This document shows, in pieces, positions 1 through 36,506 of a stretch of 64,000 nucleotides of DNA (its first letter is position 1; the number at the start of each line of letters is the position of its first letter). The notes beneath the pieces are model-generated. The model worked only from the letters and a program-made list of their open reading frames with translations. It made no database searches and had not been told where the DNA came from. The position numbers were made by a program, and so were the translations under genes. Source of the DNA: Neocallimastix sp. 'constans' (taxonomy: Eukaryota); NCBI GenBank assembly GCA_050613775.1, contig JBODTK010000104.1, positions 1-64,000 of the forward strand, given 5' to 3'.

Positions 1-237
1 ATTTATATAATAAGAATTTCTAAATTCATTTCGGTTGAATTACGAACCGAAAGAATCTTTAACTTTCTATAATTTTATACAGAAAGAATATTCAAGAAGA
101 TATTATTAATAATTAATAAAATAATTAATAAAATAATTATTAATGCAAAATGGGTTGAGGTGTGAGTCGAACCCATGAAGTATTGGTCATGGTCATGTAA
201 CTAACCATTGAACCAAAGTTCTAATTTTACTAACTGT
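1..237 (-). mobile_element. Partial LTR related to element B (minus strand), carrying a tRNA-like A-box/B-box cassette
   Basis: The reverse complement reads AAAATTAGAACTT-TGGTTCAATGG...GGGTTCGACTCACACCT...TTTCTGTATAAA. This matches, in order, blocks of the B LTR (17590-17760), including 17 identical nt around the B-box. Confidence 0.65.
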
Positions 238-733
238 TGATAAGAATGTACTAAATAATGCATTCTTAATTAAATCTACGATTTATTTCTAATACATTAT
301 GTGTACATTATTATTTTTGTACTTTAATAAATTTTTAAATCCAAAGATCAAAAATTAAATCAAAAATTATATTAAACTTTATATTTTTATATTAAATCTT
401 ATATTAATAGTAATATTTTTATATATTTAAAACTTATATTAGCAATATTAATAATAAATCTTATTTTTTTTATATTAATAATGAAAATTTATATTAATAA
501 TATTTTTATATATTGATAATTAAAAATTTATATATTATATTTTAACTTTTTATTATAAAATTTTATATCGAAATGTTTTATTTTATATTGAAAAATATTT
601 TATTTTATTAAAAACCTTTATATTAGAATAGTATTTTTATTTTTATTTGAATATTTTAACAGATTGTAATAAAAATTATAGCCAATTAAATAAATTCTTA
701 TTAGTAATATTTTAGATATTTTTAAATAAATAA

Positions 734-786
<53 letters not shown>

Positions 787-1085
787 TTTTATTAATATTA
801 TAAATGTATTTTATTTATATTGTTATAATTAAATTTTATATAATTAATTATAAAAATCAATTTAAATTTAATAGTTTTTAAAAAAAAAAAATAAATAAAA
901 TGTAATTTAGTGGCAAGAACAACTTTTATGCCTTGAAAAAAAGTATAAATAGTTGTAAATTTTGCTACTAATTTTTAAATATCATCAAATAAAATCAAAT
1001 AAATTTATAAATAAAAATAATAAATAAATAAATAAAATTTGTGTTTCCTTACTTTATTTTTATTTAATTCTCTAAAACCTTAACA
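238..1085 (+). repeat. 5' LTR of A1
   Basis: TG...CA ends; near-identical to 8004-8850 and 15164-15989; TATA-like GTATAAATAG near 943. Confidence 0.93.
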
Positions 1086-1091
1086 TTTATA

Positions 1092-1111
1092 TGGTGGAGA
1101 TATCGGGGAAT
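1092..1111 (+). promoter_or_regulatory. Primer-binding site, tRNA-Ala type (also at 8857, 16794, 29670)
   Basis: TGGTGGAGATATCGGGGAAT is complementary to a tRNA 3' end ...CCCCGATATCTCCA-CCA, typical of eukaryotic tRNA-Ala. It is identical in families A and C. Confidence 0.8.
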
Positions 1112-1776
1112 TAAATAGAAATAATAGTAAATAACATAGATTTTTTTTTAATTTTTTTTTTATTTTATATTGATAAACAAGTAAGTCGTTAATCCTTTGA
1201 TTAACCCATGGCGCTTGTTTGATATATATATATAAAAAAAATTTTTTTTAAATAAGTAAAATTAAGATTCTAAAAAAACAAATTTTGTAAAATTATAACA
1301 AGGAGCGGATAGAGCTCATACACAGTGTATTCTCAGATAGCAACAAATTAACTCTATTCATAGTAGGTTATTGAATAGTAGTTAATTTGGAGATTAATTG
1401 GAAAGTAGACGAAGGTATTTGGTTACCGACCCGGTAATAATAGTTCAACCTTCAACGTTTCAACACACGAAGGTGCGGGTACTTTCCAAGCACTGGCGAA
1501 TAAGGAGCTTACGTCACCGAAGGCGTAAGATTGTTTTTTTTATATAATTTTTTTTACTTTTCTTTGTGCTAGTTATAAGGCACTTTATTATATAAAGTAT
1601 CAGACTTTGGCTAACTTCGCCATTTAAATTTTTTTTATTTTTTTTTATTACTGGTACTTTATTTGTTATATAATTCCTGTAATAGAATCTTAATTTACTT
1701 TGAAAATATTGTGTTTTTAGTTAATTTTTATTAGTTAATAAAAATATTATTGAATACTTTTAAAATTTTTTTATTC

Positions 1777-1936
1777 CGTACATAGATTATCGGATTAAGT
1801 TTATCCTACATAGTAATTGGGCTAGTGGGCTCTGAACTGCTATATTTTATATTGAATATAGTAATCGTGGCACACGCGTGGCATGACACCATTAGGTAAG
1901 CTGCACGTCAGACAGTGTGTACTATCAGATTGTACG
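1777..1936 (+). ncRNA. Conserved structured RNA element in the A/C leader (copies at 9542-9701, 23651-23814, 30359-30518)
   Basis: Apart from the PBS it is the only leader block clearly conserved between A and C. It shows compensatory changes, e.g. CGTACA/TGTACG versus CGTGCA/TGCACG. Confidence 0.65.
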
Positions 1937-2106
1937 ACAATAAAGATTATTTTTTTGTATTTAATAATTATAATTAATTAATAATTTTATTAGCTATAAC
2001 AATACAATATTTATCGTTTAAAAAGAAAAATTTTTGAAAGGTGAAAATAATAAATAAAACTTTGCTTCTAAATTTATTACTACAAATATACTAAATTACA
2101 AAATTC

Positions 2107-2294
2107 AAGTGGTCGATAAAGATTTCGAGCTTGAAAAATATTCTATTAAGTTGTCGATAAAGATTTCGAACTTAAAATTATTCTATTAAGTTGTCGATAA
2201 AGATTTCGAACTTAAAATTATTCTTAAAAAAGTAGTCGAAAAGAACCTCGTGCTTTATAATTTCTACTAAGTTGTCGATAAGGATTTCGAGCTT
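2107..2294 (+). repeat. Five ~40-bp tandem hairpin repeats in the A leader
   Basis: Unit AAGTTGTCGATAAAGATTTCGAACTT plus an AT-rich linker; present in all three A copies. Confidence 0.85.
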
Positions 2295-2476
2295 ATACTT
2301 ACTAAAGAAAGCAAATAAAATTATTATTTTCAAAAATTACTAAGATATATTGTTTTAAAATTTGATTCGATATTAAATTACTTGTTAAATTATATTTTTA
2401 AAGTTGGACTTTCAAATTTATTCGTATTTAATAACCTCGTTAATTTACAATAAAAAAATTATTAACTAAAAACGAA

Positions 2477-3382
2477 ATGTCTACTAAAAGTACTTTAAGT
2501 TTTAAAGAATTAAAGAAAGAATTACGAGACATAGTGAAGCTTAGCAAGGACAATTTAGATATAAAGTCCTGGGCTACTGAATTAAAACTTTGGATCAAGA
2601 TACAAGGTATCACAGATCCGGAAACAATATTTAATGCTTGTTTACTTACCAGCTCTGGTGAAGTACAACGCGTTATTGAAGATTTGGGAGAAGATAGTGA
2701 TGATGAAAGTGATGATTCATCAGATGAAGAAGAAGATGATGAAGAAGAAAATGTTGATGATGATAAATTTCCTTCTCTTGAAAAAATTATTTCAAGTCTT
2801 GAAAATTTTTACGGTATTAAAGAAGACCAAAATTTACTTCTTAAAGAACTTCGTGCAATGCGAATTAAAAGAAACGAAAAGATTAAAGACTTTAATGTAA
2901 GATATAGAACTTTGTACACTAAACTTGATAAAAAGAGAAGAAAGCGCATTGGTGTACTAGATTATATTGACTCTATTCAAAATAATTATGAAGCCTGGAA
3001 GAAATTATCCCTTAAAGATGATATAAGTATGGAGAAAGCTTTCAAAATTGCCGAGAAAGTAGATAGACTTTCTGTAAGGAACAATAATATTAATACCTAT
3101 AATGTTAATAATTCCCAGCATAATCAAAATAATCAAAACAGTACTACTTCAAGACTTTATCCTAAAAGAAGAAACGAAACTTTCCAAACAAGTCAAACAA
3201 ATAATAAACTGAAACCTCAAGATATTATAGAAGAATCAACCCAGAAAATGAGAAATTTATCTGTTAAAACTTGCTTCTTCTGTAAGGAAGAAGGTCATTA
3301 CTCATACTATTGCCCTCAATTAAATAAGATTATGGAAAAAAATAAAAAAGAAATATATTCCAAAAAGTCTTTAAACTTCTAA
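2477..3382 (+). CDS. gag: Gag, family A copy 1
   Basis: 301-aa ORF with an acidic tract and a C-terminal CCHC knuckle (CFFCKEEGHYSYYC), lying between PBS and pol. Confidence 0.93.
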   Translation: MSTKSTLSFKELKKELRDIVKLSKDNLDIKSWATELKLWIKIQGITDPETIFNACLLTSSGEVQRVIEDLGEDSDDESDDSSDEEEDDEEENVDDDKFPSLEKIISSLENFYGIKEDQNLLLKELRAMRIKRNEKIKDFNVRYRTLYTKLDKKRRKRIGVLDYIDSIQNNYEAWKKLSLKDDISMEKAFKIAEKVDRLSVRNNNINTYNVNNSQHNQNNQNSTTSRLYPKRRNETFQTSQTNNKLKPQDIIEESTQKMRNLSVKTCFFCKEEGHYSYYCPQLNKIMEKNKKEIYSKKSLNF

Positions 3383-3422
3383 ATGGGAGCAGAAGCACTC
3401 CCAATGACAAAACAATAGCTTC
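3370..3422 (+). promoter_or_regulatory. -1 ribosomal frameshift signal (UUUAAAC + H-type pseudoknot); copies at 11135, 24878, 31952
   Basis: In-frame T TTA AAC, a 7-nt spacer, stem TGGGAG/CTCCCA, and loop GAAGC pairing with downstream GCTTC. The -1 frame is open into pol. Confidence 0.85.
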
Positions 3423-6400
3423 ATTAAATAATTTACAAAATAATACTTTTACCAAGAATACCCCAATTGATAATAATTCCTTTAATAAAGAATCTGAAGA
3501 ATCTGATTTTAGTGACACAACTGAAAGTGAGGATGATATCATTATAAATGCTATAAAAAGAAAAATGAATGATAATAACAGCGAAAAGGAAGAAAATAAT
3601 TCCAAGAAAGTACATAAAAGTTTAAAAAGATAATCCACGTCCTTTCGCAACTCCTGCTTTAAGAAAGAAGAAAGAAAATGAGCTACATAATAAACCAAAT
3701 AAAGTTTATAAAAATCAAATACTTCCTTCAATTTTAACTCAACCAAATATTAACAAAGAAAAACAAAAAGAAAAGGAATTAAGAAAAATAAACAAGAGTA
3801 AGAGAAAGTAAAGAAGAAAACAACAATTATTCATCAAAAGGAAAGGAAAAAGTTGAATCTGAAGATATACTCGTAATCGATAATGAAATAGAAGATCTAG
3901 AAATGAATAAAGATAATCAACAAAATAAAACTAATACTTTGGAAAAATTAATTTCAACAAAAACTAAAGAAACTAATAATGGAAATACTCAGTTAGTAAA
4001 AAGGAATATTAAAATGATGAATAATAAAGAACCTTACAATATTATGGATGATTTAAAATAATCTTAAATCCAGTATTACGATAGGTCAACTCTTGAATGC
4101 ATGTCCGAAAATTCGTTCACAATTAACTCAAGGTTTAAAGTTAGAAAAGTCTAAAATAATTGGGACTGTAGACAATGTAATAGCACGAACTTTATTAGTA
4201 AATAACTATGATCATAGCTACATAAGTAAAAGTAATGAAGTAGCCGAAGAAGACTTAGCAATGGTTGATGCAAGTGTTGACGGAGTACTAGGAAAACTTT
4301 TAATTGATTCTTGTAGTAACCTAAGCATCGTTACTAAGCAGTATTTTGATAAATTACCTGGTGAATATGAAACAGTTGGAAAAAGTCGTGGAAGAATCCA
4401 ACTAGCAACACAAGATGAAGAATACTCGGAAGGAATTATTGTTCAATTACCAGTAAAAATTAATAATTATGAATTTAATGCGGACTTTAGAATTATTGAG
4501 AAAGAAGACTCATTTTATGATATGTTAATAAACTTTAAAACTCAAATCGATCATTGTTTATTTATTCATCCGACCTTAAACAGTTTATGTAAACTTTTGT
4601 CAGAAAGTGAATACGAAGAAATAGCTAAAATAAATAATCAATATTATGATGAAGAAAGTATAATTTGCACTATTAGAAAAGTTAAAGAAACGAATAATGA
4701 AAAGGAAATTATAAAGGAATTAACTCCAATGGAATTTATTGAGAGTGATGAATTTTTAAGTACCTTAAATAAAGATTATAAAGAACAAATTATTAAAATT
4801 CTCAAAGAAATGATTGACATAGTTGCCACTTCAACAGAAGAACTAACTCCTTCTAAACTTTCACCACATAAGATCCGTTTGAAAGCAAATGCAAAGCCAG
4901 TAAAATTAAGAAGTTATAGGTTAACTAAATTAAAATCAGATATCTTAAAAGAAGAACTTACAAAGCTTATTAAGAAAGGATTGATAGAACCATCCTGTTC
5001 AGAATGGTCATCTCCAGTAGTACTCATTCTAAAACACAATGGAAAGTGGCGCTTGTGTATTGACTACCGAAAAGTCAATGATATGACAGAAAAAGATTCT
5101 TATTCAGTTCCATATATAGATGAAATTTTTGATAGTCTCGGAGGATCTAAAATATTTACAACTCTTGATTTATTTTCTGGTTTTCACCAAATCTTAATGG
5201 ATGAAGAAAGCGTTGAAGTAACCACTTTCACTACTAAGTTTGGAAATTATCAATTTAAGGTTATGCCTTTTGGACTTACTGGAGCTCCCTCAACCTTCCA
5301 AAGAGAAATGAATAAAATTTTATTCCCTTTTATTGGTGAATTTGTTTATGTATTTATTGATGATGTTTTGATCTATTCAAAAAGTATCGAAGAACATTTA
5401 ATTCATATTAAACAAGTATTAGAAGTATTTAAAGAAAACAAGTTAAAAATTAATATTGAAAAGTGCCATTTTCTTCAAACTGAAGTTGATGTATTAGGTC
5501 ACAAACTTACTACTAAAGGATTAAGTCCCATGGAAAGTAAAATAACAGCTATTAAGAAGTGGGAAGCCCCTTCATCAATTCATGAATTAAGATCATTTCT
5601 AGGAGCAATAGGGTATTATCGTGACTTTATCCCTAAATATGCTCAAATTACCTCACCTTTATGTAAATTATTGAAAAAGAATACTAAATATGAATGGAAT
5701 AAAGAACAACAAGAAAGCTTTGAACTCCTAAAAGAAAAATTAATCAATGCACCTATTCTAAAATTTCCGTCATTTGACAAACCTTTTATCATTAGAACTG
5801 ATGCTTCGTATAATGGAATTGGTGGAGTTCTTTTACAAAAAGAAGAAGAAACCGGTAAGGAGCATCCAATACACTTTATAAGTAGAAGTTTGAAGAAAAC
5901 TGAAAAGAATTATGGTATCACAGATTTGGAAGGAACAGCTTTATTTTACTGTATGACTAAATTTAAATCTTATATTGAAGGAAATCCATTACCTACAACT
6001 ATTTACACAGATCATAAACCATTAGTTGGTTTATTTAAGAATAAAGAACCTTTGAATGCAAGGCAAACAAGATGGTGTCTAACCGCTAGTATGCTTGGAA
6101 TTAATATAAAATATGAATCAGGCAAAAAGAATGTGTTAGCTGATGCTCTTTCAAGAATGAAAAGTAAGGAAGAGAGAAAGATATTATTAACAAAAATTAC
6201 TAATGGAAATAATGAAGAATTATTATCTAAGGTTATAAAGGAATTTATTAATGAAAAGTTTACTGTTATTGATGGTGAAGATTACTTTATCGACAATGGA
6301 AATTATAGAAAATTAATAACGGACGAAAATGAAAGGTTTAAATTAATTTTAGAAGCTCATAATATTGGCCACGAAGGATATTACAAAACATATCAAAGAC

Positions 6401-7383
6401 TTAAGAAAAACTTTTATTGGAATCATATGATTAAAGATATCAAAAGAATTGTTAGTAATTGTGAAAAATGCCAATTAAATCGTCCTCAACCATATCCAGA
6501 ACCAACCGAAAACCATCCAACTAAAGTGGAGGGTCCCTTTGTGCATTTAGGATTAGATATTATAGGACCGTTACCAAAAACAAGAAATAATAATCAATAT
6601 ATTATAGTAACTGTTGATTACTTTACCAAATGGGTTGAAGCCGAACCCACTGAAAACATAACTTCCTCTGATATAATTAAATTTTTAATAAACGTTTTTG
6701 CAAGACATGGTGTACCTCAAGTTATTACTACTGATAATGGAGTCCAATTCACTTCTGATATGACTAAAATCTTTCTTGATCTTTATGATGTATATGTTAA
6801 ATTTGTAGCTACTTACCACCCTGAATCAAATGGCCTTACTGAAAATCGAAATAAAGAAATTGGAAAATTACTCCGTTTATTAGGAAGGAAAAATCAAGAT
6901 TGGGATGAAGTTTTACCTTCTGCTTTATGGGCACTTCGAACTACCAAAAATACAGCTACTGGACATTCTAGTTTTGAATTAGTATATGGAAGAGAAGACC
7001 AACAGCCTTATGATATAGCCATAAGAACAATTGAAAATGCAGGTAAATCATATGATGAAATCTTAATGGAAAAATTTGTTCGTCATTATCAATGGACTAG
7101 AGAAGCATGCGAAAATGTGAAGAATGCTAACAAGTATTGGGCAACAAGACGAGAAGAACAAATAAGTATGAAAAAAGGAAAAGAATTAAAGGCTGGTGAT
7201 CTTGTTCTTGTTAGAAACTTTAGCCGCACTAAGCTAGAACCATATTACAATGGACCATTTAAAATTTTAAAAATTCAATTCAACACGGCAACCCTAATCG
7301 ATCAGAAGACTGGAAAGCAACTCGATAGGAATGTTCACTTTAAAAATTTAGTAAAGTTTAACTCCGCTTACAGAGAAGCTTGA
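3370..7383 (+). CDS. pol: Pol, family A copy 1 (three +1 A-run insertions near 3629, 3790, 4058 relative to A2/A3)
   Basis: PR (IDSCS), RT (FIDD, MPFGL), RNase H (TDAS, TDHKPL), integrase (HHCC, DD35E, GPF). The continuous ORF covers only 4093-7383. Confidence 0.88.
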
Positions 7384-7897
7384 GTCTTCGTCGGGGCATC
7401 TTGATAAGAATGTACTAAATAATGCATTCTTAATTAAATCTACGATTTATTTCTAATACATTATGTGTACATTATTATTTTTGTACTTTAATAAATTTTT
7501 AAATCCAAAGATCAAAAATTAAATCAAAAATTATATTAAACTTTATATTTTTATATTAAATCTTATATTAATAGTAATATTTTTATATATTTAAAACTTA
7601 TATTAGCAATATTAATAATAAATCTTATTTTTTTTATATTAATAATGAAAATTTATATTAATAATATTTTTATATATTGATAATTAAAAATTTATATATT
7701 ATATTTTAACTTTTTATTATAAAATTTTATATCGAAATGTTTTATTTTATATTGAAAAATATTTTATTTTATTAAAAACCTTTATATTAGAATAGTATTT
7801 TTATTTTTATTTGAATATTTTAACAGATTGTAATAAAAATTATAGCCAATTAAATAAATTCTTATTAGTAATATTTTAGATATTTTTAAATAAATAA

Positions 7898-7950
<53 letters not shown>

Positions 7951-10241
7951 TTTTATTAATATTATAAATGTATTTTATTTATATTGTTATAATTAAATTT
8001 TATTGATAAGAATGTACTAAATAATGCATTCTTAATTAAATCTACGATTTATTTCTAATACATTATGTGTACATTATTATTTTTGTACTTTAATAAATTT
8101 TTAAATCCAAAGATCAAAAATTAAATCAAAAATTATATTAAACTTTATATTTTTATATTAAATCTTATATTAATAGTAATATTTTTATATATTTAAAACT
8201 TATATTAGCAATATTAATAATAAATCTTATTTTTTTTTATATTAATAATGAAAATTTATATTAATAATATTTTTATATATTGATAATTAAAAATTTATAT
8301 ATTATATTTTAACTTTTTATTATAAAATTTTATATCGAAATGCTTTATTTTATATTGAAAAATATTTTATTTTATTAAAAACCTTTATATTAGAATAGTA
8401 TTTTTATTTTTATTTGAATATTTTAACAGATTGTAATAAAAATTATAGCCAATTAAATAAATTCTTATTAGTAATATTTTAGATATTTTTAAATAAATAA
8501 ATAAAAAAAAAAAAAAAAAAAAAAAATAAAAAAAAAAAAAAAAAAAAAAATGTTTTATTAATATTATAAATGTATTTTATTTATATTGTTATAATTAAAT
8601 TTTATATAATTAATTATAAAAATCAATTTAAATTTAATAGTTTTTATAAAAAAAAAATAAATAAAATGTAATTTAGTGGCAAGAACAACTTTTATGCCTT
8701 GAAAAAAGTATAAATAGTTGTAAATTTTGCTACTAATTTTTAAATATCATCAAATAAAATCAAATAAATTTATAAATAAAAATAATAAATAAATAAATAA
8801 AATTTGTGTTTCCTTACTTTATTTTTATTTAATTCTCTAAAACCTTAACATTTATATGGTGGAGATATCGGGGAATTAAATAGAAATAATAGTAAATAAC
8901 ATAGATTTTTTTTTAATTTTTTTTTTATTTTATATTGATAAACAAGTAAGTCGTTAATCCTTTGATTAACCCATGGCGCTTGTTTGATATATATATATAA
9001 AAAAAATTTTTTTTAAATAAGTAAAATTAAGATTCTAAAAAAACAAATTTTGTAAAATTATAACAAGGAGCGGATAGAGCTCATACACAGTGTATTCTCA
9101 GATAGCAACAAATTAACTCTATTCATAGTAGGTTATTGAATAGTAGTTAATTTGGAGATTAATTGGAAAGTAGACGAAGGTATTTGGTTACCGACCCGGT
9201 AATAATAGTTCAACCTTCAACGTTTCAACACACGAAGGTGCGGGTACTTTCCAAGCACTGGCGAATAAGGAGCTTACGTCACCGAAGGCGTAAGATTGTT
9301 TTTTTTATATAATTTTTTTTACTTTTCTTTGTGCTAGTTATAAGGCACTTTATTATATAAAGTATCAGACTTTGGCTAACTTCGCCATTTAAATTTTTTT
9401 TATTTTTTTTTATTACTGGTACTTTATTTGTTATATAATTCCTGTAATAGAATCTTAATTTACTTTGAAAATATTGTGTTTTTAGTTAATTTTTATTAGT
9501 TAATAAAAATATTATTGAATACTTTTAAAATTTTTTTATTCCGTACATAGATTATCGGATTAAGTTTATCCTACATAGTAATTGGGCTAGTGGGCTCTGA
9601 ACTGCTATATTTTATATTGAATATAGTAATCGTGGCACACGCGTGGCATGACACCATTAGGTAAGCTGCACGTCAGACAGTGTGTACTATCAGATTGTAC
9701 GACAATAAAGATTATTTTTTTGTATTTAATAATTATAATTAATTAATAATTTTATTAGCTATAACAATACAATATTTATCGTTTAAAAAGAAAAATTTTT
9801 GAAAGGTGAAAATAATAAATAAAACTTTGCTTCTAAATTTATTACTACAAATATACTAAATTACAAAATTCAAGTGGTCGATAAAGATTTCGAGCTTGAA
9901 AAATATTCTATTAAGTTGTCGATAAAGATTTCGAACTTAAAATTATTCTATTAAGTTGTCGATAAAGATTTCGAACTTAAAATTATTCTTAAAAAAGTAG
10001 TCGAAAAGAACCTCGTGCTTTATAATTTCTACTAAGTTGTCGATAAGGATTTCGAGCTTATACTTACTAAAGAAAGCAAATAAAATTATTATTTTCAAAA
10101 ATTACTAAGATATATTGTTTTAAAATTTGATTCGATATTAAATTACTTGTTAAATTATATTTTTAAAGTTGGACTTTCAAATTTATTCGTATTTAATAAC
10201 CTCGTTAATTTACAATAAAAAAATTATTAACTAAAAACGAA

Positions 10242-11147
10242 ATGTCTACTAAAAGTACTTTAAGTTTTAAAGAATTAAAGAAAGAATTACGAGACATAGT
10301 GAAGCTTAGCAAGGACAATTTAGATATAAAGTCCTGGGCTACTGAATTAAAACTTTGGATCAAGATACAAGGTATCACAGATCCGGAAACAATATTTAAT
10401 GCTTGTTTACTTACCAGCTCTGGTGAAGTACAACGCGTTATTGAAGATTTGGGAGAAGATAGTGATGATGAAAGTGATGATTCATCAGATGAAGAAGAAG
10501 ATGATGAAGAAGAAAATGTTGATGATGATAAATTTCCTTCTCTTGAAAAAATTATTTCAAGTCTTGAAAATTTTTACGGTATTAAAGAAGACCAAAATTT
10601 ACTTCTTAAAGAACTTCGTGCAATGCGAATTAAAAGAAACGAAAAGATTAAAGACTTTAATGTAAGATATAGAACTTTGTACACTAAACTTGATAAAAAG
10701 AGAGGAAAGCGCATTGGTGTACTAGATTATATTGACTCTATTCAAAATAATTATGAAGCCTGGAAGAAATTATCCCTTAAAGATGATATAAGTATGGAGA
10801 AAGCTTTCAAAATTGCCGAGAAAGTAGATAGACTTTCTGTAAGGAACAATAATATTAATACCTATAATGTTAATAATTCCCAGCATAATCAAAATAATCA
10901 AAACAGTACTACTTCAAGACTTTATCCTAAAAGAAGAAACGAAACTTTCCAAACAAGTCAAACAAATAATAAACTGAAACCTCAAGATATTATAGAAGAA
11001 TCAACCCAGAAAATGAGAAATTTATCTGTTAAAACTTGCTTCTTCTGTAAGGAAGAAGGTCATTACTCATACTATTGCCCTCAATTAAATAAGATTATGG
11101 AAAAAAATAAAAAAGAAATATATTCCAAAAAGTCTTTAAACTTCTAA
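10242..11147 (+). CDS. gag: Gag, family A copy 2
   Basis: 301 aa, differs from A1 gag by one residue; CCHC knuckle. Confidence 0.93.
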   Translation: MSTKSTLSFKELKKELRDIVKLSKDNLDIKSWATELKLWIKIQGITDPETIFNACLLTSSGEVQRVIEDLGEDSDDESDDSSDEEEDDEEENVDDDKFPSLEKIISSLENFYGIKEDQNLLLKELRAMRIKRNEKIKDFNVRYRTLYTKLDKKRGKRIGVLDYIDSIQNNYEAWKKLSLKDDISMEKAFKIAEKVDRLSVRNNNINTYNVNNSQHNQNNQNSTTSRLYPKRRNETFQTSQTNNKLKPQDIIEESTQKMRNLSVKTCFFCKEEGHYSYYCPQLNKIMEKNKKEIYSKKSLNF

Positions 11148-14100
11148 ATGGGAGCAGAAGCACTCCCAATGACAAAACAATAGCTTCATTAAATAATTTA
11201 CAAAATAATACTTTTACCAAGAATACCCCAATTGATAATAATTCCTTTAATAAAGAATCTGAAGAATCTGATTTTAGTGACACAACTGAAAGTGAGGATA
11301 ATATCATTATAAATGCTATAAAAAGAAAAATGAATGATAATAACAGCGAAAAGGAAGAAAATAATTCCAAGAAAGTACATAAAAGTTTAAAAGATAATCC
11401 ACGTCCTTTCGCAACTCCTGCTTTAAGAAAGAAGAAAGAAAATGAGCTACATAATAAACCAAATAAAGTTTATAAAAATCAAATACTTCCTTCAATTTTA
11501 ACTCAACCAAATATTAACAAAGAAAAACAAAAAGAAAAGGAATTAAGAAATATAACAAGAGTAAGAGAAAGTAAAGAAGAAAACAACAATTATTCATCAA
11601 AAGGAAAGAAAAAAGTTGAATCTGAAGATATACTTGTAATCGATAATGAAATAGAAGATATAGAAATGAATAAAGATAATCAACAAAATAAAACTAATAC
11701 TTTGGAAAAATTAATTTCAACAAAAACTAAAGAAACTAATAATGAAAATACTCAGTTAGTAAAAAGGAATATCAAAATGATGAATAATAAAGAACCTTAC
11801 AATATTATGGATGATTTAAATAATCTTAAATCCAGTATTACGATAGGTCAACTCTTGAATGCATGTCCGAAAATTCGTTCACAATTAACTCAAGGTTTAA
11901 AGTTAGAAAAATCTAAAATAATTGGAACTGTAGACAATGTAATAGCACGAACTTTATTAGTGAATAACTATGATCATAGCTACATAAGTAAAAGTAATGA
12001 AGTAGCCGAAGAAGACTTAGCAATGGTTGATGCAAGTGTTGACGGAGTACTAGGAAAACTTTTAATTGATTCTTGTAGTAACCTAAGCATCGTTACTAAG
12101 CAGTATTTTGATAAATTACCTGGTGAATATGAAACAGTTGGAAAAAGTCGTGGAAGAATCCAACTAGCAACACAAGATGAAGAATACTCGGAAGGAATTA
12201 TTGTTCAATTACCAGTAAAAATTAATAATTATGAATTTAATGCGGACTTTAGAATTATTGAGAAAGAAGACTCATTTTATGATATGTTAATAAACTTTAA
12301 AACTCAAATCGATCATTGTTTATTTATTCATCCGACCTTAAACAGTTTATGTAAACTTTTGTCAGAAAGTGAATACGAAGAAATAGCTAAAATAAATAAT
12401 CAATATTATGATGAAGAAAGTATAATTTGCACTATTAGAAAAGTTAAAGAAACGAATAATGAAAAGGAAATTATAAAGGAATTAACTCCAATGGAATTTA
12501 TTGAGAGTGATGAATTTTTAAGTACCTTAAATAAAGATTATAAAGAACAAATTATTAAAATTCTCAAAGAAATGATTGACATAGTTGCCACTTCAACAGA
12601 AGAACTAACTCCTTCTAAACTTTCACCACATAAGATCCGTTTGAAAGCAAATGCAAAGCCAGTAAAATTAAGAAGTTATAGGTTAACTAAATTAAAATCA
12701 GATATCTTAAAAGAAGAACTTACAAAGCTTATTAAGAAAGGATTGATAGAACCATCCTGTTCAGAATGGTCATCTCCAGTAGTACTCATTCTAAAACACA
12801 ATGGAAAGTGGCGCTTGTGTATTGACTACCGAAAAGTCAATGATATGACAGAAAAAGATTCTTATTCAGTTCCATATATAGATGAAATTTTTGATAGTCT
12901 CGGAGGATCTAAAATATTTACAACTCTTGATTTATTTTCTGGTTTTCACCAAATCTTAATGGATGAAGAAAGCGTTGAAGTAACCACTTTCACTACTAAG
13001 TTTGGAAATTATCAATTTAAGGTTATGCCTTTTGGACTTACTGGAGCTCCCTCAACCTTCCAAAGAGAAATGAATAAAATTTTATTCCCTTTTATTGGTG
13101 AATTTGTTTATGTATTTATTGATGATGTTTTGATCTATTCAAAAAGTATCGAAGAACATTTAATTCATATTAAACAAGTATTAGAAGTATTTAAAGAAAA
13201 CAAGTTAAAAATTAATATTGAAAAGTGCCATTTTCTTCAAACTGAAGTTGATGTATTAGGTCACAAACTTACTACTAAAGGATTAAGTCCCATGGAAAGT
13301 AAAATAACAGCTATTAAGAAGTGGGAAGCCCCTTCATCAATTCATGAATTAAGATCATTTCTAGGAGCAATAGGGTATTATCGTGACTTTATCCCTAAAT
13401 ATGCTCAAATTACCTCACCTTTATGTAAATTATTGAAAAAGAATACTAAATATGAATGGAATAAAGAACAACAAGAAAGCTTTGAACTCCTAAAAGAAAA
13501 ATTAATCAATGCACCTATTCTAAAATTTCCGTCATTTGACAAACCTTTTATCATTAGAACTGATGCTTCGTATAATGGAATTGGTGGAGTTCTTTTACAA
13601 AAAGAAGAAGAAACCGGTAAGGAGCATCCAATACACTTTATAAGTAGAAGTTTGAAGAAAACTGAAAAGAATTATGGTATCACAGATTTGGAAGGAACAG
13701 CTTTATTTTACTGTATGACTAAATTTAAATCTTATATTGAAGGAAATCCATTACCTACAACTATTTACACAGATCATAAACCATTAGTTGGTTTATTTAA
13801 GAATAAAGAACCTTTGAATGCAAGGCAAACAAGATGGTGTCTAACCGCTAGTATGCTTGGAATTAATATAAAATATGAATCAGGCAAAAAGAATGTGTTA
13901 GCTGATGCTCTTTCAAGAATGAAAAGTAAGGAAGAGAGAAAGATATTATTAACAAAAATTACTAATGGAAATAATGAAGAATTATTATCTAAGGTTATAA
14001 AGGAATTTATTAATGAAAAGTTTACTGTTATTGATGGTGAAGATTACTTTATCGACAATGGAAATTATAGAAAATTAATAACGGACGAAAATGAAAGGTT

Positions 14101-15145
14101 TAAATTAATTTTAGAAGCTCATAATATTGGCCACGAAGGATATTACAAAACATATCAAAGACTTAAGAAAAACTTTTATTGGAATCATATGATTAAAGAT
14201 ATCAAAAGAATTGTTAGTAATTGTGAAAAATGCCAATTAAATCGTCCTCAACCATATCCAGAACCAACCGAAAACCATCCAACTAAAGTGGAGGGTCCCT
14301 TTGTGCATTTAGGATTAGATATTATAGGACCTTTGCCAAAAACAAGAAATAACAATCAATATATTATCGTTACAGTTGATTATTTCACCAAATGGGTTGA
14401 AGCTGAACCCACTGAGAATATAACTTCCTATGATGTAATTAAATTTTTAATAAACGTTTTTGCAAGACATGGTGTGCCTCAAGTTATTACTACTGATAAT
14501 GGAGTCCAATTCACCTCCGACATGACAAAAATCTTTCTTGACCTTTATGATGTTTATGTAAAATTCATAGCTACCTATTACCCTGAATCCAATGGTCTCA
14601 CTGAAAACCGAAATAAAGAAATTGGAAAATTGCTTCGTTTATTAGGAAGGAAAAATCAAGATTGGGATGAAGTTTTACCTTCTGCTTTATGGGCACTTCG
14701 AACTACCAAAAATACAGCTACTGGACATTCTAGTTTTGAATTAGTATATGGAAGAGAAGACCAACAGCCTTATGATATAGCCATAAGAACAATTGAAAAT
14801 GCAGGTAAATCATATGATGAAATTTTAATGGAAAAATTTGTTCGTCATTATCAATGGACTAGAGAAGCATGCGAAAATGTGAAGAATGCTAACAAGTATT
14901 GGGCAACAAGACGAGAAGAACAAATAAGTATGAAAAAAGGAAAAGAATTAAAGGCTGGTGATCTTGTTCTTGTTAGAAACTTTAGCCGCACTAAGCTAGA
15001 ACCATATTACAATGGACCATTTAAAATTTTAAAAATTCAATTCAACACGGCAACCCTAATCGATCAGAAGACTGGAAAGCAACTCGATAGGAATGTTCAC
15101 TTTAAAAATTTAGTAAAGTTTAACTCCGCTTACAGAGAAGCTTGA
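11135..15145 (+). CDS. pol: Pol, family A copy 2 (entered by -1 frameshift; first ATG 11330)
   Basis: Uninterrupted PR-RT-RH-IN reading frame. Confidence 0.95.
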   Translation, partial: FKLLNGSRSTPNDKTIASLNNLQNNTFTKNTPIDNNSFNKESEESDFSDTTESEDNIIINAIKRKMNDNNSEKEENNSKKVHKSLKDNPRPFATPALRKKKENELHNKPNKVYKNQILPSILTQPNINKEKQKEKELRNITRVRESKEENNNYSSKGKKKVESEDILVIDNEIEDIEMNKDNQQNKTNTLEKLISTKTKETNNENTQLVKRNIKMMNNKEPYNIMDDLNNLKSSITIGQLLNACPKIRSQLTQGLKLEKSKIIGTVDNVIARTLLVNNYDHSYISKSNEVAEEDLAMVDASVDGVLGKLLIDSCSNLSIVTKQYFDKLPGEYETVGKSRGRIQLATQDEEYSEGIIVQLPVKINNYEFNADFRIIEKEDSFYDMLINFKTQIDHCLFIHPTLNSLCKLLSESEYEEIAKINNQYYDEESIICTIRKVKETNNEKEIIKELTPMEFIESDEFLSTLNKDYKEQIIKILKEMIDIVATSTEELTPSKLSPHKIRLKANAKPVKLRSYRLTKLKSDILKEELTKLIKKGLIEPSCSEWSSPVVLILKHNGKWRLCIDYRKVNDMTEKDSYSVPYIDEIFDSLGGSKIFTTLDLFSGFHQILMDEESVEVTTFTTKFGNYQFKVMPFGLTGAPSTFQREMNKILFPFIGEFVYVFIDDVLIYSKSIEEHLIHIKQVLEVFKENKLKINIEKCHFLQTEVDVLGHKLTTKGLSPMESKITAIKKWEAPSSIHELRSFLGAIGYYRDFIPKYAQITSPLCKLLKKNTKYEWNKEQQESFELLKEKLINAPILKFPSFDKPFIIRTDASYNGIGGVLLQKEEETGKEHPIHFISRSLKKTEKNYGITDLEGTALFYCMTKFKSYIEGNPLPTTIYTDHKPLVGLFKNKEPLNARQTRWCLTASMLGINIKYESGKKNVLADALSRMKSKEERKILLTKITNGNNEELLSKVIKEFINEKFTVIDGEDYFIDNGNYRKLITDENERFKLILEAHNIGHEGYYKTYQRLKKNFYWNHMIKDIKRIVSNCEKCQLNRPQPYPEPTENHPTKVEGPFVHLGLDIIGPLPKTRNNNQYIIVTVDYFTKWVEAEPTENITSYDVIKFLINVFARHGVPQVITTDNGVQFTSDMTKIFLDLYDVYVKFIATYYPESNGLTENRNKEIGKLLRLLGRKNQDWDEVLPSALWALRTTKNTATGHSSFELVYGREDQQPYDIAIRTIENAGKSYDEILMEKFVRHYQWTREACENVKNANKYWATRREEQISMKKGKELKAGDLVLVRNFSRTKLEPYYNGPFKILKIQFNTATLIDQKTGKQLDRNVHFKNLVKFNSAYREA

Positions 15146-16972
15146 GTCTTCGTCGGGGCATCTTGATAAGAATGTACTAAATAATGCATTCTTAATTAAA
15201 TCTACGATTTATTTCTAATACATTATGTGTACATTATTATTTTTGTACTTTAATAAATTTTTAAATCCAAAGATCAAAAATTAAATCAAAAATTATATTA
15301 AACTTTATATTTTTATATTAAATCTTATATTAATAGTAATATTTTTATATATTTAAAACTTATATTAGCAATATTAATAATAAATCTTATTTTTTTTTAT
15401 ATTAATAATGAAAATTTATATTAATAATATTTTTATATATTGATAATTAAAAATTTATATATTATATTTTAACTTTTTATTATAAAATTTTATATCGAAA
15501 TGCTTTATTTTATATTGAAAAATATTTTATTTTATTAAAAACCTTTATATTAGAATAGTATTTTTATTTTTATTTGAATATTTTAACAGATTGTAATAAA
15601 AATTATAGCCAATTAAATAAATTCTTATTAGTAATATTTTAGATATTTTTAAATAAATAAATAAATAAAAAAAAAAAAAAAAAAAAAAATGTTTTATTAA
15701 TATTATAAATGTATTTTATTTATATTGTTATAATTAAATTTTATATAATTAATTATAAAAATCAATTTAAATTTAATAGTTTTTATAAAAAAAAAATAAA
15801 TAAAATGTAATTTAGTGGCAAGAACAACTTTTATGCCTTGAAAAAAGTATAAATAGTTGTAAATTTTGCTACTAATTTTTAAATATCATCAAATAAAATC
15901 AAATAAATTTATAAATAAAAATAATAAATAAATAAATAAAATTTGTGTTTCCTTACTTTATTTTTATTTAATTCTCTAAAACCTTAACACATGATAATAC
16001 AGAATGAACAAATAATACTAATTGTGCTAGAATAATATAAATTATTCTAACCTTATAGATTATTCTATTCTATATAATTGGAACTTTCCAATATTCTTCA
16101 AATATTACTAAATAGAAAATCTTAAGTTAATAAATCACTAATTAACTTATAATTCCTTTTTGAATTATCGATCCGATTCCATTATAATGTATTAAAAATC
16201 TTTAGCCAAGAATATTGTCCTTGCCCACTTAATATATTAATATTATATTTCTTTTGTATTATGTTATATTGAAAATAATCAAATCTATTTAATTAGTTAT
16301 TAAAATTTTCGTTATCAATTTAAATTTATTTTTAATTACTAAATTTAACTAAACCACAATAAAATATTCTGTATAATCTCTTTATTTTTATTTTATATAT
16401 ATTAGTATTAAACTATTATTAAATAATTAATAATTCAATAATATATAACTACTATTTATAACAATAATATTATTAACTAAAATAATAATTCAATTTCAAT
16501 TTAAATGTTTTATTTATAAAAATAATTAGTAATTAGTTTATTAAAAAAATAGTTAGGCTTTACAAATTTTAATTTGATAAAAAAATATAAATACATGTAA
16601 TTTTAGTGAAATAAAATATAATCAAAAAAACTTTCTTTTTATTAAATAAATAATTATATTATTATTTTTTTTTTATAAATTTAAATAAATAAATATTGAT
16701 TTTAAAACAAATTATTTTTTTTTATTGTAATTTTATTATTTGTGTTAATTATTATTATATTCCTAAAATTATATGAACCATACCATGAAAAATTGGTGGA
16801 GATATCGGGGAATATAATAATAAATTAATACATTGGGGATAAAATTATAATATTAATAAATAATTTTTCTAATAAAACAAATATTTTTTTTTAAAAAAAG
16901 AAAACAATTTTTATATTTTTAACTAATTATTATTAATTGTTAAAAATATTAATTAATGTAACGAATCTTAAA

Positions 16973-17587
16973 TGATACGATATTTTATTAAATACCGTAT
17001 ATGTTAGTTGGGCGTTTGTGCAAAAGGGAATTACTCCAAGAATATTATATTACAATAATTATATTTACTTTTTATTTATTTATCTTTTATTATTTTATTT
17101 ATTATATTTTATCATAAAAAAAATACATGTTTTATTATTATTCCTTAAAAAAAAAGAAAATATTTATTTATAAATTATTTTCATAATTATATTTTTTACT
17201 AATTTTATAAATTTTATTTATCGAAACACTAAAATTAATTAATAAATATAAATATCCATAACTTTTTACTTATAACTATTAATTCATCTTGTTTAACATT
17301 ATTTAAAAATTATTTTAATATTAACATCAATTTAATTAAACATTCAATCTCCGTTATAATTAATATAACTAATTTTACTATATTATCAACAATTCTTTTA
17401 ATATTTTTAATATTATTATTTAATTTAATATTTTAATAATTAATAATAATAAATTATCTTTAATAATATATTAATAATATATTTTAAGATTCATTATATA
17501 AAATTAATTTTTAATAAATATTTATATTAATAATTTTTCTAAATAATTTTTCTATTATTTTCTATTATTTTTACTGGACATGCATCA
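16973..17587. mobile_element. Solo LTR inserted in the 5' LTR of B
   Basis: 615 bp absent from the 3' LTR of B; ends TGATAC...GCATCA; 4-bp TSD TAAA. Confidence 0.85.
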
Positions 17588-17610
17588 TAAAAAATTAGAA
17601 ATTAGAATGC

Positions 17611-17663
17611 TGGCATAGTGGTTAGTCACTATGACCTCAGCCTGAACCACTAGGGTTCGACTC
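17611..17663 (+). promoter_or_regulatory. tRNA-type Pol III internal promoter inside the B LTR (second copy 23052-23104)
   Basis: A-box TGGCATAGTGG and B-box GGTTCGACTC at tRNA-like spacing, with a T4 run shortly downstream; no cloverleaf. Confidence 0.75.
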
Positions 17664-18182
17664 ACACCTTTACTAAAATTTTATATCATTTAAATTTTAA
17701 AGAATTTTTATACTTCATTTCTGTATTTGTTTCTGTATTTGTTTCTGTATAAATTTCTGAAAAAATTAACAAAAGACATTCTTAGAAATTAATAGAAACA
17801 AATCAGATAGAAATTCTATTTTAATTTATCTTTTATCATTATTTCTTTTAGATTCTTTTTAACCGAAAATAATCAATTTTTATGAAACTTTTTAATGATT
17901 TTATGGTTTTAAATTTTTATGGATTTAAATTTTGAAAAACTATAAATAGGAGTGAATTTCGCAGCCAAAAAAAAAAAATATTTTAAAAATTGTGTTTTTA
18001 TTAATTATTGAATTAATTAATAAGTAATTCGAAATATTACAATAATTAATCTTTATAATTAATATTTTTAAATTTCTTAATTAATAAAACTATATTTTAA
18101 AAAACCAAATTACTTATTAATCAAAAAGTGCTTACCTATTGTGTTACACTCTTTAAAACACGGATATTCCAATATTCGTTAC

Positions 18183-18193
18183 AATAAAAACAC
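18183..18193 (+). promoter_or_regulatory. Self-priming PBS of B
   Basis: AATAAAAACAC is complementary to GTGTTTTTATT at 17992-18002, about 50 nt downstream of TATAAATA (17941). There is no TGG tRNA-type PBS. Confidence 0.75.
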
Positions 18194-18230
18194 CACTAAA
18201 CTAAGCACAATACCTTTGCACTTTTACTCT

Positions 18231-18470
18231 TTTTGGAACCCCATTAAGGAATCCCATTTTCTACTACTATTTTTGGAACCCCGTTAAGGAATCCCATTTT
18301 CTACTACTATTTTCGGAACCCCGTTAAGGAATCCCATTTACTACTATTCTTTTTTGGAACCCCGTTAAGGAATCCCATTCTCTACTACTCTTTTTGGAAC
18401 CCCGTTAAGCAATCCCATTCTCTATTACTCTTTTTGGAACCCCGTTAAGGAATCCCATTTTCTACTATTT
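18231..18470 (+). repeat. Six ~40-bp tandem repeats in the B leader
   Basis: Unit TTTTGGAACCCCGTTAAGGAATCCCATTTTCTACTACT. Confidence 0.9.
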
Positions 18471-18702
18471 TTGAAACCACTTACCATTACTATAAATTTT
18501 TCTACCAAAATTCATTCATGAATTTATAAATTCAATCGGAACCCTTGAATTTTACTATATATTAAAATTATTAATATTTTCAATAATCCATATAACCATC
18601 CTTGAAATTAAAATTATTTATATTGAAATTAAATATTTACTTCTTCTAATAATTAATTATATTGTATATTTATTATTCAATCAAAATCAATAATTATAAT
18701 AA

Positions 18703-18746
<44 letters not shown>

Positions 18747-18803
18747 ATAATAATAATTTAGATATTTAATAGTTTTAATATAAATAACCAATTGAATAAT
18801 TAG

Positions 18804-22705
<3,902 letters not shown>

Positions 22706-23972
22706 ATATAAATCATTTAATCAAAAATAAATTTTATTTCATCAAAGTACTATTAATCATTCTAACTTATGATTATTTTAAAAAAAAAAAAAAATTATTT
22801 TATATTATTCAAAAACATTTATTCTAGATAGTTTTATTTTTATACTTTATTTTTAAAACTTAAAATTCATGTAATTTTTATTATCCAATGTATTAATTAA
22901 ATTATCACTCCTATAAGTAATTTAGTTATAGTTTATTATTATAAAAGTTAGAATTAGAAATAGTTTAGATTTAAAGCAAAAGATTCGTCTGGCATCCGAA
23001 TCCTAGAGGAGGACCATGTAACGAATCTTAAAAAATTAGAAATTAGAATGCTGGCATAGTGGTTAGTCACTATGACCTCAGCCTGAACCACTAGGGTTCG
23101 ACTCACACCTTTACTAAAATTTTATATCATTTAAATTTTAAAGAATTTTTATACTTCATTTCTGTATTTGTTTCTGTATTTGTTTCTGTATAAATTTCTG
23201 AAAAAATTAACAAAAGACATTCTTAGAAATTAATAGAAACAAATCAGATAGAAATTCTATTTTAATTTATCTTTTATCATTATTTCTTTTAGATTCTTTT
23301 TAACCGAAAATAATCAATTTTTATGAAACTTTTTAATGATTTTATGGTTTTAAATTTTTATGGATTTAAATTTTGAAAAACTATAAATAGGAGTGAATTT
23401 CGCAGCCAAAAAAAAAAAAATATTTTAAAAATTGTGTTTTTATTAATTATTGAATTAATTAATAAGTAATTCGAAATATTACAATAATTAATCTTTATAA
23501 TTAATATTTTTAAATTTCTTAATTAATAAAACTATATTTTAAAAAACCAAATTACTTATTAATCAAAAAGTGCTTACCTATTGTGTTACACTCTTTAAAA
23601 CACGGATATTCCAATATTCGTTACAATTAATATTAAATTAAACTAATATTCGTGCATAGATTTCCGGGTTAAGTTTATCCTACATAGTAATTGGGCTAGT
23701 AGGCTCTGGACTGCTATTTTTTATATTGAAAATAGTAACCGTGGCACACGCGTGGCATGACACCTTTCAAGAGGTAAGCTGCACGTCAGACAGTGTGTAC
23801 TATCAGATTGCACGATTATTATAATTTAATAAGTGATTAACAATAATAAATAATTAATAATTTTATTAGTTAAAAGATTTATTTTTTTTAATTTTTTTTA
23901 TTTTTACTTTTTTTTATAACAATTTATACATTACGAGGTTTAGCATTCTATAGATACAATAAATTTTATTTT

Positions 23973-24890
23973 ATGAGAACATCCAGTACTTCCAGTACTC
24001 CAACAGAGAGTACTCCAGAAAGTAAGCTTAGCTTCAGAGAATTAAAGAAAGAATTAAAAGATTTTGAAAAGCTTACTAAACAAAACCTTGACATCAACTC
24101 CTGGGCAAATGAGTTAAAGGCATGGATAAAATACCAACATATCAAGGATCCTGAAACTATTTTTACTGCTTGTATATTAACGGCTTCTGGAGAACCAAGA
24201 GAAATTATCCAAGAACTAGAAGATGGAAATGACCTTACTGAAGATGAAGATTCTGATTTCGATAGCGATAGTGAAGGAGAAGATGATGAAGAAAGTGAAT
24301 CTACTACCACCTACCCAAGCCTTGATGAAATCATAAATCATCTGAAGACTTTCTATGGACTTAAAGAAGATCAAACCAACTTGTTACGAGAATTGCGTTC
24401 CATGAAAATAAAGAAGAACGAGAAAGTTAAAGATTTTAATGTCCGTTATAGATCTTTGTACCATAAATTGGATAAAAAGAGAAGAAGAAAAATTAGTGTT
24501 TTAGATTATGCAGATTCCTTAACCAATAATCCTGACGCATGGAGAAAGGTTATGCTTAAAGACAATATTTCTATTACCAAAGCATTCGCTATAGCTGAAA
24601 AAGTTGATCGTTTATCTATTAAAAATAGTACTGAATATTATGATAAGACTCGTTACAATCTCCTTAACTCTAAAAGTAATTTTAATAAGAACATTTCAAA
24701 TGATTTTAACAAACCAAAAACCCACAAAAATGTATCTATAGAAAATCTCACTAACAAGATGAAAGAAATGAAAATTAGTACTTGCTGGTTTTGTAGCAAT
24801 GAAGGACATACCAAACGAAACTGTCCTAAATTAAATTCTATATTGGAAAATAACCGCAAGAAGTTTTATGAAAATTATTTAAACCACTAA
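23973..24890 (+). CDS. gag: Gag of element C
   Basis: 305 aa, aligns with A gag (LSFRELKKEL, DPETIF); CCHC CWFCSNEGHTKRNC. Confidence 0.92.
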   Translation: MRTSSTSSTPTESTPESKLSFRELKKELKDFEKLTKQNLDINSWANELKAWIKYQHIKDPETIFTACILTASGEPREIIQELEDGNDLTEDEDSDFDSDSEGEDDEESESTTTYPSLDEIINHLKTFYGLKEDQTNLLRELRSMKIKKNEKVKDFNVRYRSLYHKLDKKRRRKISVLDYADSLTNNPDAWRKVMLKDNISITKAFAIAEKVDRLSIKNSTEYYDKTRYNLLNSKSNFNKNISNDFNKPKTHKNVSIENLTNKMKEMKISTCWFCSNEGHTKRNCPKLNSILENNRKKFYENYLNH

Positions 24891-27800: not shown

Positions 27801-28624
27801 ATAATTATAGAAAATTAGTTACAGATACAAAAGAAAAACTTCAATTAATTTTTCAAGCACACAGTATAGGACACGAAGGCTATTACAAGACATACCAACG
27901 TTTGAAAAAGAGCTACTATTGGAACAATATGGTTAATGACATTAAGCGAATTATAGGTAAATGTGAAAAATGTCAATTAAATAAATCTCAACCATACCCT
28001 GAACCAACGGAAGATAAACCAACTGAAGTGGAAGGACCATTTACACACTTAGGATTGGACATTATAGGACCTCTAAGTAAAACCAGAAATAATAATCAAT
28101 ATATAATCGTTGTGGTTGATTATTTTACTAAATGGGTTGAGGCAGAGCCCACTGAAAATGTTACTTCTCAGGATGTGATAAAATTTTTAATTAATGTATT
28201 TGCTCGACACGGTGTACCTCAAATTATCACTACTGATAATGGAACACAATTTACATCAGATATGACAAAAATCTTCCTTGATTTATATGATGTATATGTT
28301 AAATTTATCACTCCATATCATCCTGAAAGCAATGGTTTAGTTGAGAATCGTAATAAAGAAATTGGAAAATTATTACGATTACTAGGACAACAACACAAAG
28401 AATGGGATGAAATTTTACCATCTGCACTTTGGGCTTTAAGAACTACTAAAAACTCAATCACCAACCATTCAAGTTTTGAATTAGTTTATGGAAGGGAGGA
28501 CCAACAACCTTTTGACATTGCTGCCAGACCAACTAAGGGTATAAATAAGTCTTCTGACGAAATTCTACTGGAAAAATTTGTATCACACTACCAATGGGTA
28601 ATATTTATATATAAATCTATATAA
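24878..28624 (+). pseudogene. pol: Pol of element C, integrase C-terminus lost
   Basis: PR IDSCS, RT FIDD, RH and IN core are present. The frame runs into unrelated AT-rich sequence after about 28598. Confidence 0.88.
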
Positions 28625-28721
28625 TATAATAAAAAAAATTATATATATATATATATAAATCTATATAAAATAATAAAAAAAAAAAAAAAATTTTTTATTT
28701 ATCTATAAAAAAACTACCGAA

Positions 28722-28794
28722 TACCCAAACCCGGGTTCGAACCGGAGACCTTTTGCGTGTAAAGCAAACGTGATAACCACTACACTATTTGGAT
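28722..28794 (-). tRNA. tRNA-Val (anticodon UAC)
   Basis: ATCCAAA-TAGTGTAGTGGTTATCAC-G-TTTGC-TTTACAC-GCAAA-AGGTC-TCCGG-TTCGAAC-CCGGG-TTTGGGT-A: a full 73-nt cloverleaf followed by a T-run terminator. Confidence 0.95.

Positions 28795-29297: not shown

Positions 29298-29338
<41 letters not shown>

Positions 29339-36467: not shown

Positions 36468-36506
<39 letters not shown>

Follow-up and report, generated by a model that had tools for sequence, protein, structure and literature searches.

What is the stretch of about 160 nt that two otherwise dissimilar retrotransposon families have in common in their leaders, and what might its RNA do? The window studied here is a 64,000-nt stretch of Neocallimastix sp. 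'constans' DNA (contig JBODTK010000104.1), which has a very high A+T content throughout and carries clustered Ty3/gypsy LTR retrotransposons; by Pfam, the domain order in their long ORFs is reverse transcriptase (RT), RNase H, integrase. Family A comprises three copies, A1 (about 238-8003), A2 (8004-15989) and A3 (28811-36831), each laid out as a ~850-nt LTR, a primer-binding site, a 1.4-kb leader, gag with one CCHC zinc knuckle, and pol in the -1 frame; the named relatives of its proteins are from Orpinomyces and Neocallimastix, which by itself makes an anaerobic gut fungus the likely host. All features are on the forward strand unless noted. The 5' LTR of A1 (238-1085) has TG...CA ends and a TATA-like motif at 944, and is followed by a 20-nt primer-binding site (1092-1111) and by gag (2477-3382, 301 aa); the 3' LTR of A1 is shortened where A2 begins.

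Family C starts near 15992, has its primer-binding site near 16795 (16795-16814), and is cut at its end near 28600; its gag (23973-24890, 305 aa) also encodes one CCHC zinc knuckle. The primer-binding site is identical in A1 and C, and we take it to be that of tRNA-Ala. An unrelated chromodomain Ty3/gypsy element, B (16958-23625), interrupts the leader of C; it is inserted 25 nt upstream of the shared stretch (hereafter, the block) and flanked on both sides by ATTAA. Element B has no copy of the block, and the LTR that adjoins the C block thus belongs to B. The 5' LTR of B (16958-18184) is ~600 nt longer than its 3' LTR (23017-23625), the two matching over 17584-18184 plus the first 16 nt. Gag and pol overlap in the -1 frame at 3355-3382, 24860-24890 and 31940-31964, and both A and C have TTTAAAC just before the gag stop, which is likely a -1 frameshift site. 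The pol frame of A1 (3346-7383) is open only from 4057, and those of A2 and A3 have 1344 codons; pol of C is cut at about 28600, and no 3' LTR was seen for C (28585-28720).

The initial annotation placed the block at 1777-1936 and described it as nearly identical between families A and C, whose LTRs and leaders do not otherwise align. We located it exactly there, with four copies in the window: A1 (1777-1936), A2 (9542-9701, identical to A1), A3 (30359-30518, one change from A1, U-G to U-A in helix P3b of the fold described below) and C (23651-23814, 93% identical to A1, with two two-sided changes in the core of the fold and one in P1a). Compared with the 93% identity of the block, the A and C proteins are only 55% (Gag) and 74% (RT-RNase H) identical, and fourfold-degenerate pol sites of A3 and C agree at 87 of 220 positions. 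By self-BLAST, A and C match over at least 100 nt only in gag, in pol and in the block, where the match runs on for ~63 nt on the 3' side; the leaders otherwise have in common the 20-nt primer-binding site. The block forms a G+C island (40-45%, versus 6-29% in its flanks).

To place the block beyond the window, we searched metagenome contigs with a 51-row Gag alignment, covering 17 of 64 parts. This small sample yielded at least three loci with a related Gag (L001, L002 and L003), and all three carry the block after the same primer-binding site. Their identities to A1 are 90% for Gag and 96% for the block in L001, 55% and 82% in L002, and 52% and 66% in L003; Gag identity between block-carrying families is 52-60%. 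A covariance model made without L003 (R1) recovered the L003 block at 43.5 bits (E 1.4e-10), and a second model (R2) includes L003. Across the 81 kb searched with both models there was no further copy, the next-best matches having E 0.62 (R1) and 0.061 (R2); thus, the three other Ty3/gypsy elements of the window lack the block. Protein-based scans of viral contigs and genome contigs gave no relative. DNA-pattern searches returned seven viral-contig loci (one plus six), which we rejected because the covariance model was blank at E up to 1; one of them, L004, also has phage-like genes. Two other DNA-pattern searches had no matches. One further homologue, a partial contig in two runs that shares several of the L002 changes, was excluded from all counts.

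In all seven copies, that is, the four clade copies in the window and L001-L003, the block lies outside the LTR, between the primer-binding site and gag. The distance from primer site to block varies between 120 and 690 nt, and that from block to gag AUG between 158 and 840 nt.

The predicted fold consists of two nested three-way junctions: a closing helix, P1, leads to a P1-P2-P5 junction, and P2 leads to a second junction, P2-P3-P4. In copy A1, P1 is made up of P1a (1777-1782/1931-1936) and P1b (1785-1787/1924-1926), and a 5-nt linker (1788-1792) at the P1-P2-P5 junction precedes P2 (1793-1796/1863-1866). The P3 arm contains P3a (1799-1803/1833-1837), a 1x3 loop (U1804/CUC 1830-1832), P3b (1805-1809/1825-1829), a bulged A (A1810) and P3c (1811-1813/1822-1824), and P4 is a hairpin (1839-1846/1855-1862) with a G-U pair at its base. 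The P5 arm begins with P5a (1867-1875/1915-1922), which includes a bulged G1869 and a G-U pair (1870/1920), and continues through a bulge (1909-1914; 6-12 nt across homologues), P5b (1876-1883/1902-1908), a purine-rich loop (1884-1887/1898-1901) and P5c (1888-1890/1895-1897). Invariant bases include the CG at the end of the linker, the U/CUC loop, the bulged A and G, two junction-proximal G-U pairs and the AAG of the loop; the two G-U pairs and the bulged G flank the junctions. Pair positions were mapped by anchors in a script, since MAFFT misplaced the 3' half of L003.

The claim that covariation maintains this structure is supported. The 46-pair core, read from the same sequences that provide the counts, is intact in A3, C and L001 (46 pairs each), and retains 44 pairs in L002 and 45 in L003. 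Two-sided changes occur at 13 of the 46 pairs, and relative to A1 all 18 double changes keep pairing: 2 in C, 6 in L002 and 10 in L003, where an equal number of changes scattered randomly over paired positions would give 0.08, 0.6 and 1.5. Under the same null, the six changes between A1 and C, all of which keep their pairs, would leave a mean of 42.3 pairs (P 0.004); L002, with 16 paired positions changed, would keep 36.5, and L003, with 25 changed, 32.3. Shuffling gave a similar picture, with 10 two-sided pairs versus 3.2 in the plain alignment of five sequences, and 15 versus 4.3 in a model-fitted alignment of six distinct sequences that represent about four independent, related lineages (0 of 500 shuffles reach this value). 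A measure based on further pair types was not above shuffles in the model-fitted alignment (318/500). The pair types include ten G-U and zero A-C, which points to a fold on the sense RNA.

These counts also bear on the alternative that the block is a recently copied G+C island without function. A possible recent exchange between A and C would fit such an island, as would single-sequence folding z-scores of only -1.1 to -1.8. However, the retention of 44 and 45 of 46 pairs in L002 and L003, and the excess of double changes there, go against it; judging from these sequences, the functionless reading is already largely refuted, and we regard it as very improbable. The covariation-supported fold lies 2-12 kcal/mol above the minimum-energy fold of each sequence.

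The individual helices named in the initial annotation all fall into place in this fold. Between A and C, the closing stem changes from A-U to G-C at 1780/1933, GATT/AATC becomes GGTT/AACC through the same change at 1794/1865, the GCTATTT/AAATAGT-type difference in C corresponds to A-U to U-A at 1844/1857, and the ACC/GGU hairpin is longer in C. The pairing of CCTAC with either GTGGG or GTAGG reflects U-G or U-A at 1807/1827, which varies inside family A as well. Two other proposals fared less well. Crossing helices had suggested a pseudoknot, yet every helix that was named nests in one structure, so a pseudoknot is not needed. Only one loop-loop pairing of at least 4 pairs is common to the four families, that of the P3 loop with the P5 bulge: A, C and L002 have 4 pairs, two of them G-U, and L003 has 5. 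In L003, however, 9 of 36 segment pairs pass the same bar, so that this weak pairing is within chance and not support; a contact between loop and bulge is possible in the model. The model pairs both halves of the palindrome CACGCGTG, proposed as a dimerization signal. L002 and L003 lack this palindrome, and the four families have no 6-nt palindrome in common.

The initial annotation could not match the block by eye to the hammerhead, HDV, twister, pistol or hairpin consensus, and our Rfam searches gave no match to any family. With Rfam 15 at gathering scores, the whole window gave one tRNA only, and at E up to 10 the regions 1000-2500 and 23600-23900 and loci L001-L003 gave five weak matches (E 5.9-9.7), far below gathering scores. 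In the open-licence literature that we searched, we found no description of the block RNA. Altogether, the model indicates that the block is a real, clade-wide structured RNA in Ty3/gypsy leaders, apparently undescribed: the annotation of an undescribed structured RNA kept by covariation stands and extends to three more elements. The block offers a new RNA family to model.

How old is it? A quick RT tree (45 rows) places A3, L001, C and L003 within one 27-row clade (SH-aLRT 98), and a 54-row Gag tree (FastTree), divided at its midpoint, has block carriers in either half. This spread suggests that the block is likely ancestral to a clade of many families, a view drawn from the DNA of only four lineages. 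Its history does not simply follow that of Gag. The C block is 93% identical to that of A and 80% to that of L002, while the C Gag is nearer to L002 (tree distance 1.06) than to A (1.35), a discord that reflects either module exchange between co-resident families or uneven rates. A and C may have exchanged the block recently. The linker and one P2 pair of the C block are common to L002 and L003, and thus it is not a plain copy of the A block. If the block was swapped between families, it would show that RNA modules move among retroelements.

What does the block do? Packaging or dimerization, an IRES and a new ribozyme class had been offered. Packaging fits the position best, and the block is most likely a packaging-type cis element with what the model presents as a new fold; a Gag-binding packaging domain in particular, proposed by analogy, is the leading though tentative candidate. 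The dimerization argument fell with the palindrome, and the IRES and ribozyme proposals are weighed below. In the packaging reading, the sense-RNA domain with its two nested three-way junctions would be the site where the Gag zinc knuckle binds and selects full-length RNA. The full-length transcript would be both the scanned mRNA for Gag and the genome, and the invariant junction and loop bases would hold a tertiary fold in place and thereby expose weakly paired guanosines, as in the packaging signals of retroviruses. Gag bound at the block would then direct the RNA into assembling particles and impede scanning. Since the distances to the primer site and gag AUG are free, the block would act as a self-contained module. 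A CX2CX4HX4C knuckle is present in all six Gags examined. At about 160 nt, the HIV-1 encapsidation signal is of the same size as the block.

The comparisons that follow draw on excerpts of the cited papers. Retroviral core encapsidation signals (the HIV-1 Psi-CES tandem three-way junction and MoMuLV Psi) lie, like the block, in the leader between primer site and gag, and HIV-1 Psi-CES also shares two nested three-way junctions, G-U pairs next to the junctions and a cognate Gag with a CCHC knuckle (PMC7395439). For NC binding, the same source names weakly paired guanosines next to the tandem three-way junction in HIV-1 and a UCUG linker in MoMuLV (PMC7395439), a precedent that favours Gag over a host factor as the ligand of the block. 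The block differs from these signals in that we saw no sequence likeness, there is no loop palindrome, the gag AUG lies outside the fold, the distances to primer site and AUG are free, and Gag binding is a prediction. The missing conserved loop palindrome counts against packaging, and so does the UCUG at 1831-1834, which is UCUU in L002.

Among fungal LTR retrotransposons, Ty1 offers a parallel, a structured cis-acting 5'-terminal region that is bound by Gag; as excerpted, its packaging and Gag-binding sequences lie in the 5' terminus, and retroviral and Ty1 dimers use palindromes (PMC6844567). The Ty1 (Ty1/copia) structure is described there as overlapping GAG and resting on a pseudoknot and the palindromes PAL1 and PAL2, whereas the block is non-coding, nested and palindrome-free. 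The Ty1 5' pseudoknot is needed for transposition but dispensable for packaging (same excerpts, PMC6844567), and a conserved leader fold is thus not necessarily a packaging signal. For BARE, it is documented that LTR transcripts need to be divided between translation and packaging (PMC3735527), and the choice of RNA for packaging by LTR retrotransposons is called poorly defined, even in Ty1, in the excerpts of PMC6844567. Compact, non-coding and defined by covariation, the 160-nt block is a clean target for structure probing, for assays of Gag binding and for cross-packaging between families whose Gags are only about 55% identical.

The discord between block and Gag gives no sign of co-evolution with a family-specific Gag, and a host ligand would fit equally well. 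Position alone fits export or stability roles as well as packaging. A rival reading is a binding site for a host factor that exports, localizes or stabilizes the unspliced transcript, comparable in action to the export elements known from simple retroviruses and from rodent LTR elements. That the block sequence follows Gag phylogeny poorly, that its position is free, and that conservation of its loops and junctions is of the kind expected for one fixed ligand all agree with such a site. Yet no Rfam family was matched, unrelated elements of the same host do without the block, and splice-donor-like motifs were seen only in A-type leaders (two of four whole leaders), with none in the scanned part of the C leader. 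We consider a host-factor site rather unlikely.

The branching of the fold raises the possibility of a ribozyme on a scaffold like that of the Neurospora VS ribozyme, which would make a conditional cut in its own or a partner RNA and could, for example, divert transcripts from the genomic pool. The helix order P1-P2-(P3,P4)-P5 corresponds to VS II-III-(IV,V)-VI, and P5 has a bulge two pairs in and an internal loop further out; in VS helix VI, the bulge is likewise spaced two pairs in. The many invariant unpaired bases, and a fold that is not the energy minimum, as in RNAs stabilized by tertiary contacts, point the same way. According to excerpts of PMC5573960 and PMC4536322, VS helices II-VI share the branching order with two three-way junctions (II-III-VI and III-IV-V), and helix VI, like P5, has both a bulge and an internal loop. 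Because the nesting of two three-way junctions is a common plan, we treat the VS likeness as a resemblance, not as membership.

Several points weigh against the ribozyme. VS needs a substrate, stem-loop I with its G638 loop, and a kissing interaction of that loop with stem-loop V, and neither is conserved at the block: by eye, no conserved substrate stem-loop lies beside it, the flanks being A+T-rich and unalike, and the P4 loop has no conserved kissing partner, with no P4-loop pairing inside the block common to the four families. The VS A756 loop has a G-A pair and an S-turn; the P5 loop, as read from six sequences, is purine-rich with a conserved AAG and is of another size (4x4 or 3x4). VS belongs to a mitochondrial satellite, the block to a nuclear LTR element. 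The block stretch occurs in twenty public runs, eight of them recorded as RNA. In three of four runs, individual contigs reach across the block, and in the fourth, overlapping contigs cover it; only two of the four are recorded as RNA. Spanning contigs speak against complete cleavage, although contigs show no ends and libraries may contain DNA. Because contigs span the block, and because a cut there would be expected to part the primer site from the genome, efficient self-cleavage is disfavoured.

Group I and lariat-capping ribozymes have a core with a P3/P7 pseudoknot and a guanosine site; no such core was matched at the block with Rfam, and in L003 alone can the CUC loop form as many as 4 pairs with the P5 bulge. 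Retrozymes and other ribozyme-bearing retrotransposons (hammerhead in LTRs, HDV-like in R2) resemble the block in having a folded RNA in the non-coding part of a retroelement, but theirs are small ribozymes of Rfam types at the element ends, whereas the block matches no Rfam family and lies inside the genomic RNA. We regard catalysis as improbable, and give the same low standing to its boldest form, in which the modelled block would be a second natural RNA built on the VS scaffold, or would represent a new catalytic class. As an exchangeable module in the leaders of one clade of fungal Ty3/gypsy elements, it would then cleave conditionally or in trans and so allot transcripts to translation or to packaging. 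Catalysis, if confirmed, would make the block a new ribozyme, and an unusually located one.

Could the block instead promote translation of gag, as an IRES, a shunt or an enhancer? The leaders are 0.5-1.4 kb long, and a stable domain in the scanning path would need a bypass; in L002 and L003, an AUG occurs within 10 nt after the block. In an IRES that sets the start codon, that codon follows the structure at a short, constant spacing and upstream AUGs are tolerated; neither feature applies to the block. The gag AUG lies 158-840 nt downstream, L002 lacks the AUG that A, C and L001 have inside the block, and AUGs are scarce upstream of the block too (in A1, 1 seen versus 7.2 expected from dinucleotides). 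Whole-leader counts are 2 AUGs seen versus 16.0 expected in A1, 3 versus 14.2 in L002 and 3 versus 15.0 in L003, compared with 9 versus 8.0 in the LTR U3 control. The reverse word CAT is also mildly low (9 versus 14.4 expected), so the AUG deficit is partly compositional. The variable distance to the gag AUG and the avoidance of upstream AUGs fit scanning from the cap and disfavour an IRES; a translation element of any of these kinds is as doubtful as a ribozyme.

A role in primer loading, the start of reverse transcription or genome cyclization is more doubtful still. In its favour, the block follows the primer site in every copy, and a 5' structure of Ty1 affects reverse transcription according to the excerpts of PMC6844567. 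The distance to the primer site nevertheless varies over 120-690 nt, and a perfect complement of at least 11 nt between the block and the rest of the element is absent in L001 and L003 and consists only of an A/T run in A3. Between the block and the tRNA-Val of the window, there is no complement of 7 nt or more.

The leaders contain other features besides the block. A second, larger covarying domain is present in family-A leaders, at 1297-1535, at ~29876-30113 and in L001 at ~500-738. Of its 74 predicted pairs, 8 have two-sided changes among the three sequences; it has no Rfam match and no BLAST match in L002, L003 or C. Between the block and gag, three lineages have short tandem repeats built on GTCGA...TTTCGA (2100-2300; L001 1285-1500; L003 1165-1270). 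Further G+C-rich, hairpin-like segments, mutually unlike and without an Rfam match, occur in L003 (350-400 and 880-1020) and L002 (893-922).

Sequences related to tRNA genes also occur in or next to the elements. By eye, we spotted tRNA-like sequences with A-box/B-box-like motifs in the LTRs of element B (17608-17670 and 23049-23110), and a similar one just upstream of the A1 LTR (~150-222, minus strand); neither ARAGORN nor Rfam called a tRNA at any of these places. Element A3 is inserted 16 nt upstream of the tRNA-Val gene, which is on the opposite strand, with GAAT on both sides (28722-28811). Targeting of tRNA genes is known for Ty3 and DGLT-A, and the position of A3 suggests such targeting here; A1 may have targeted the tRNA-like sequence upstream of it as if it were a tRNA gene.
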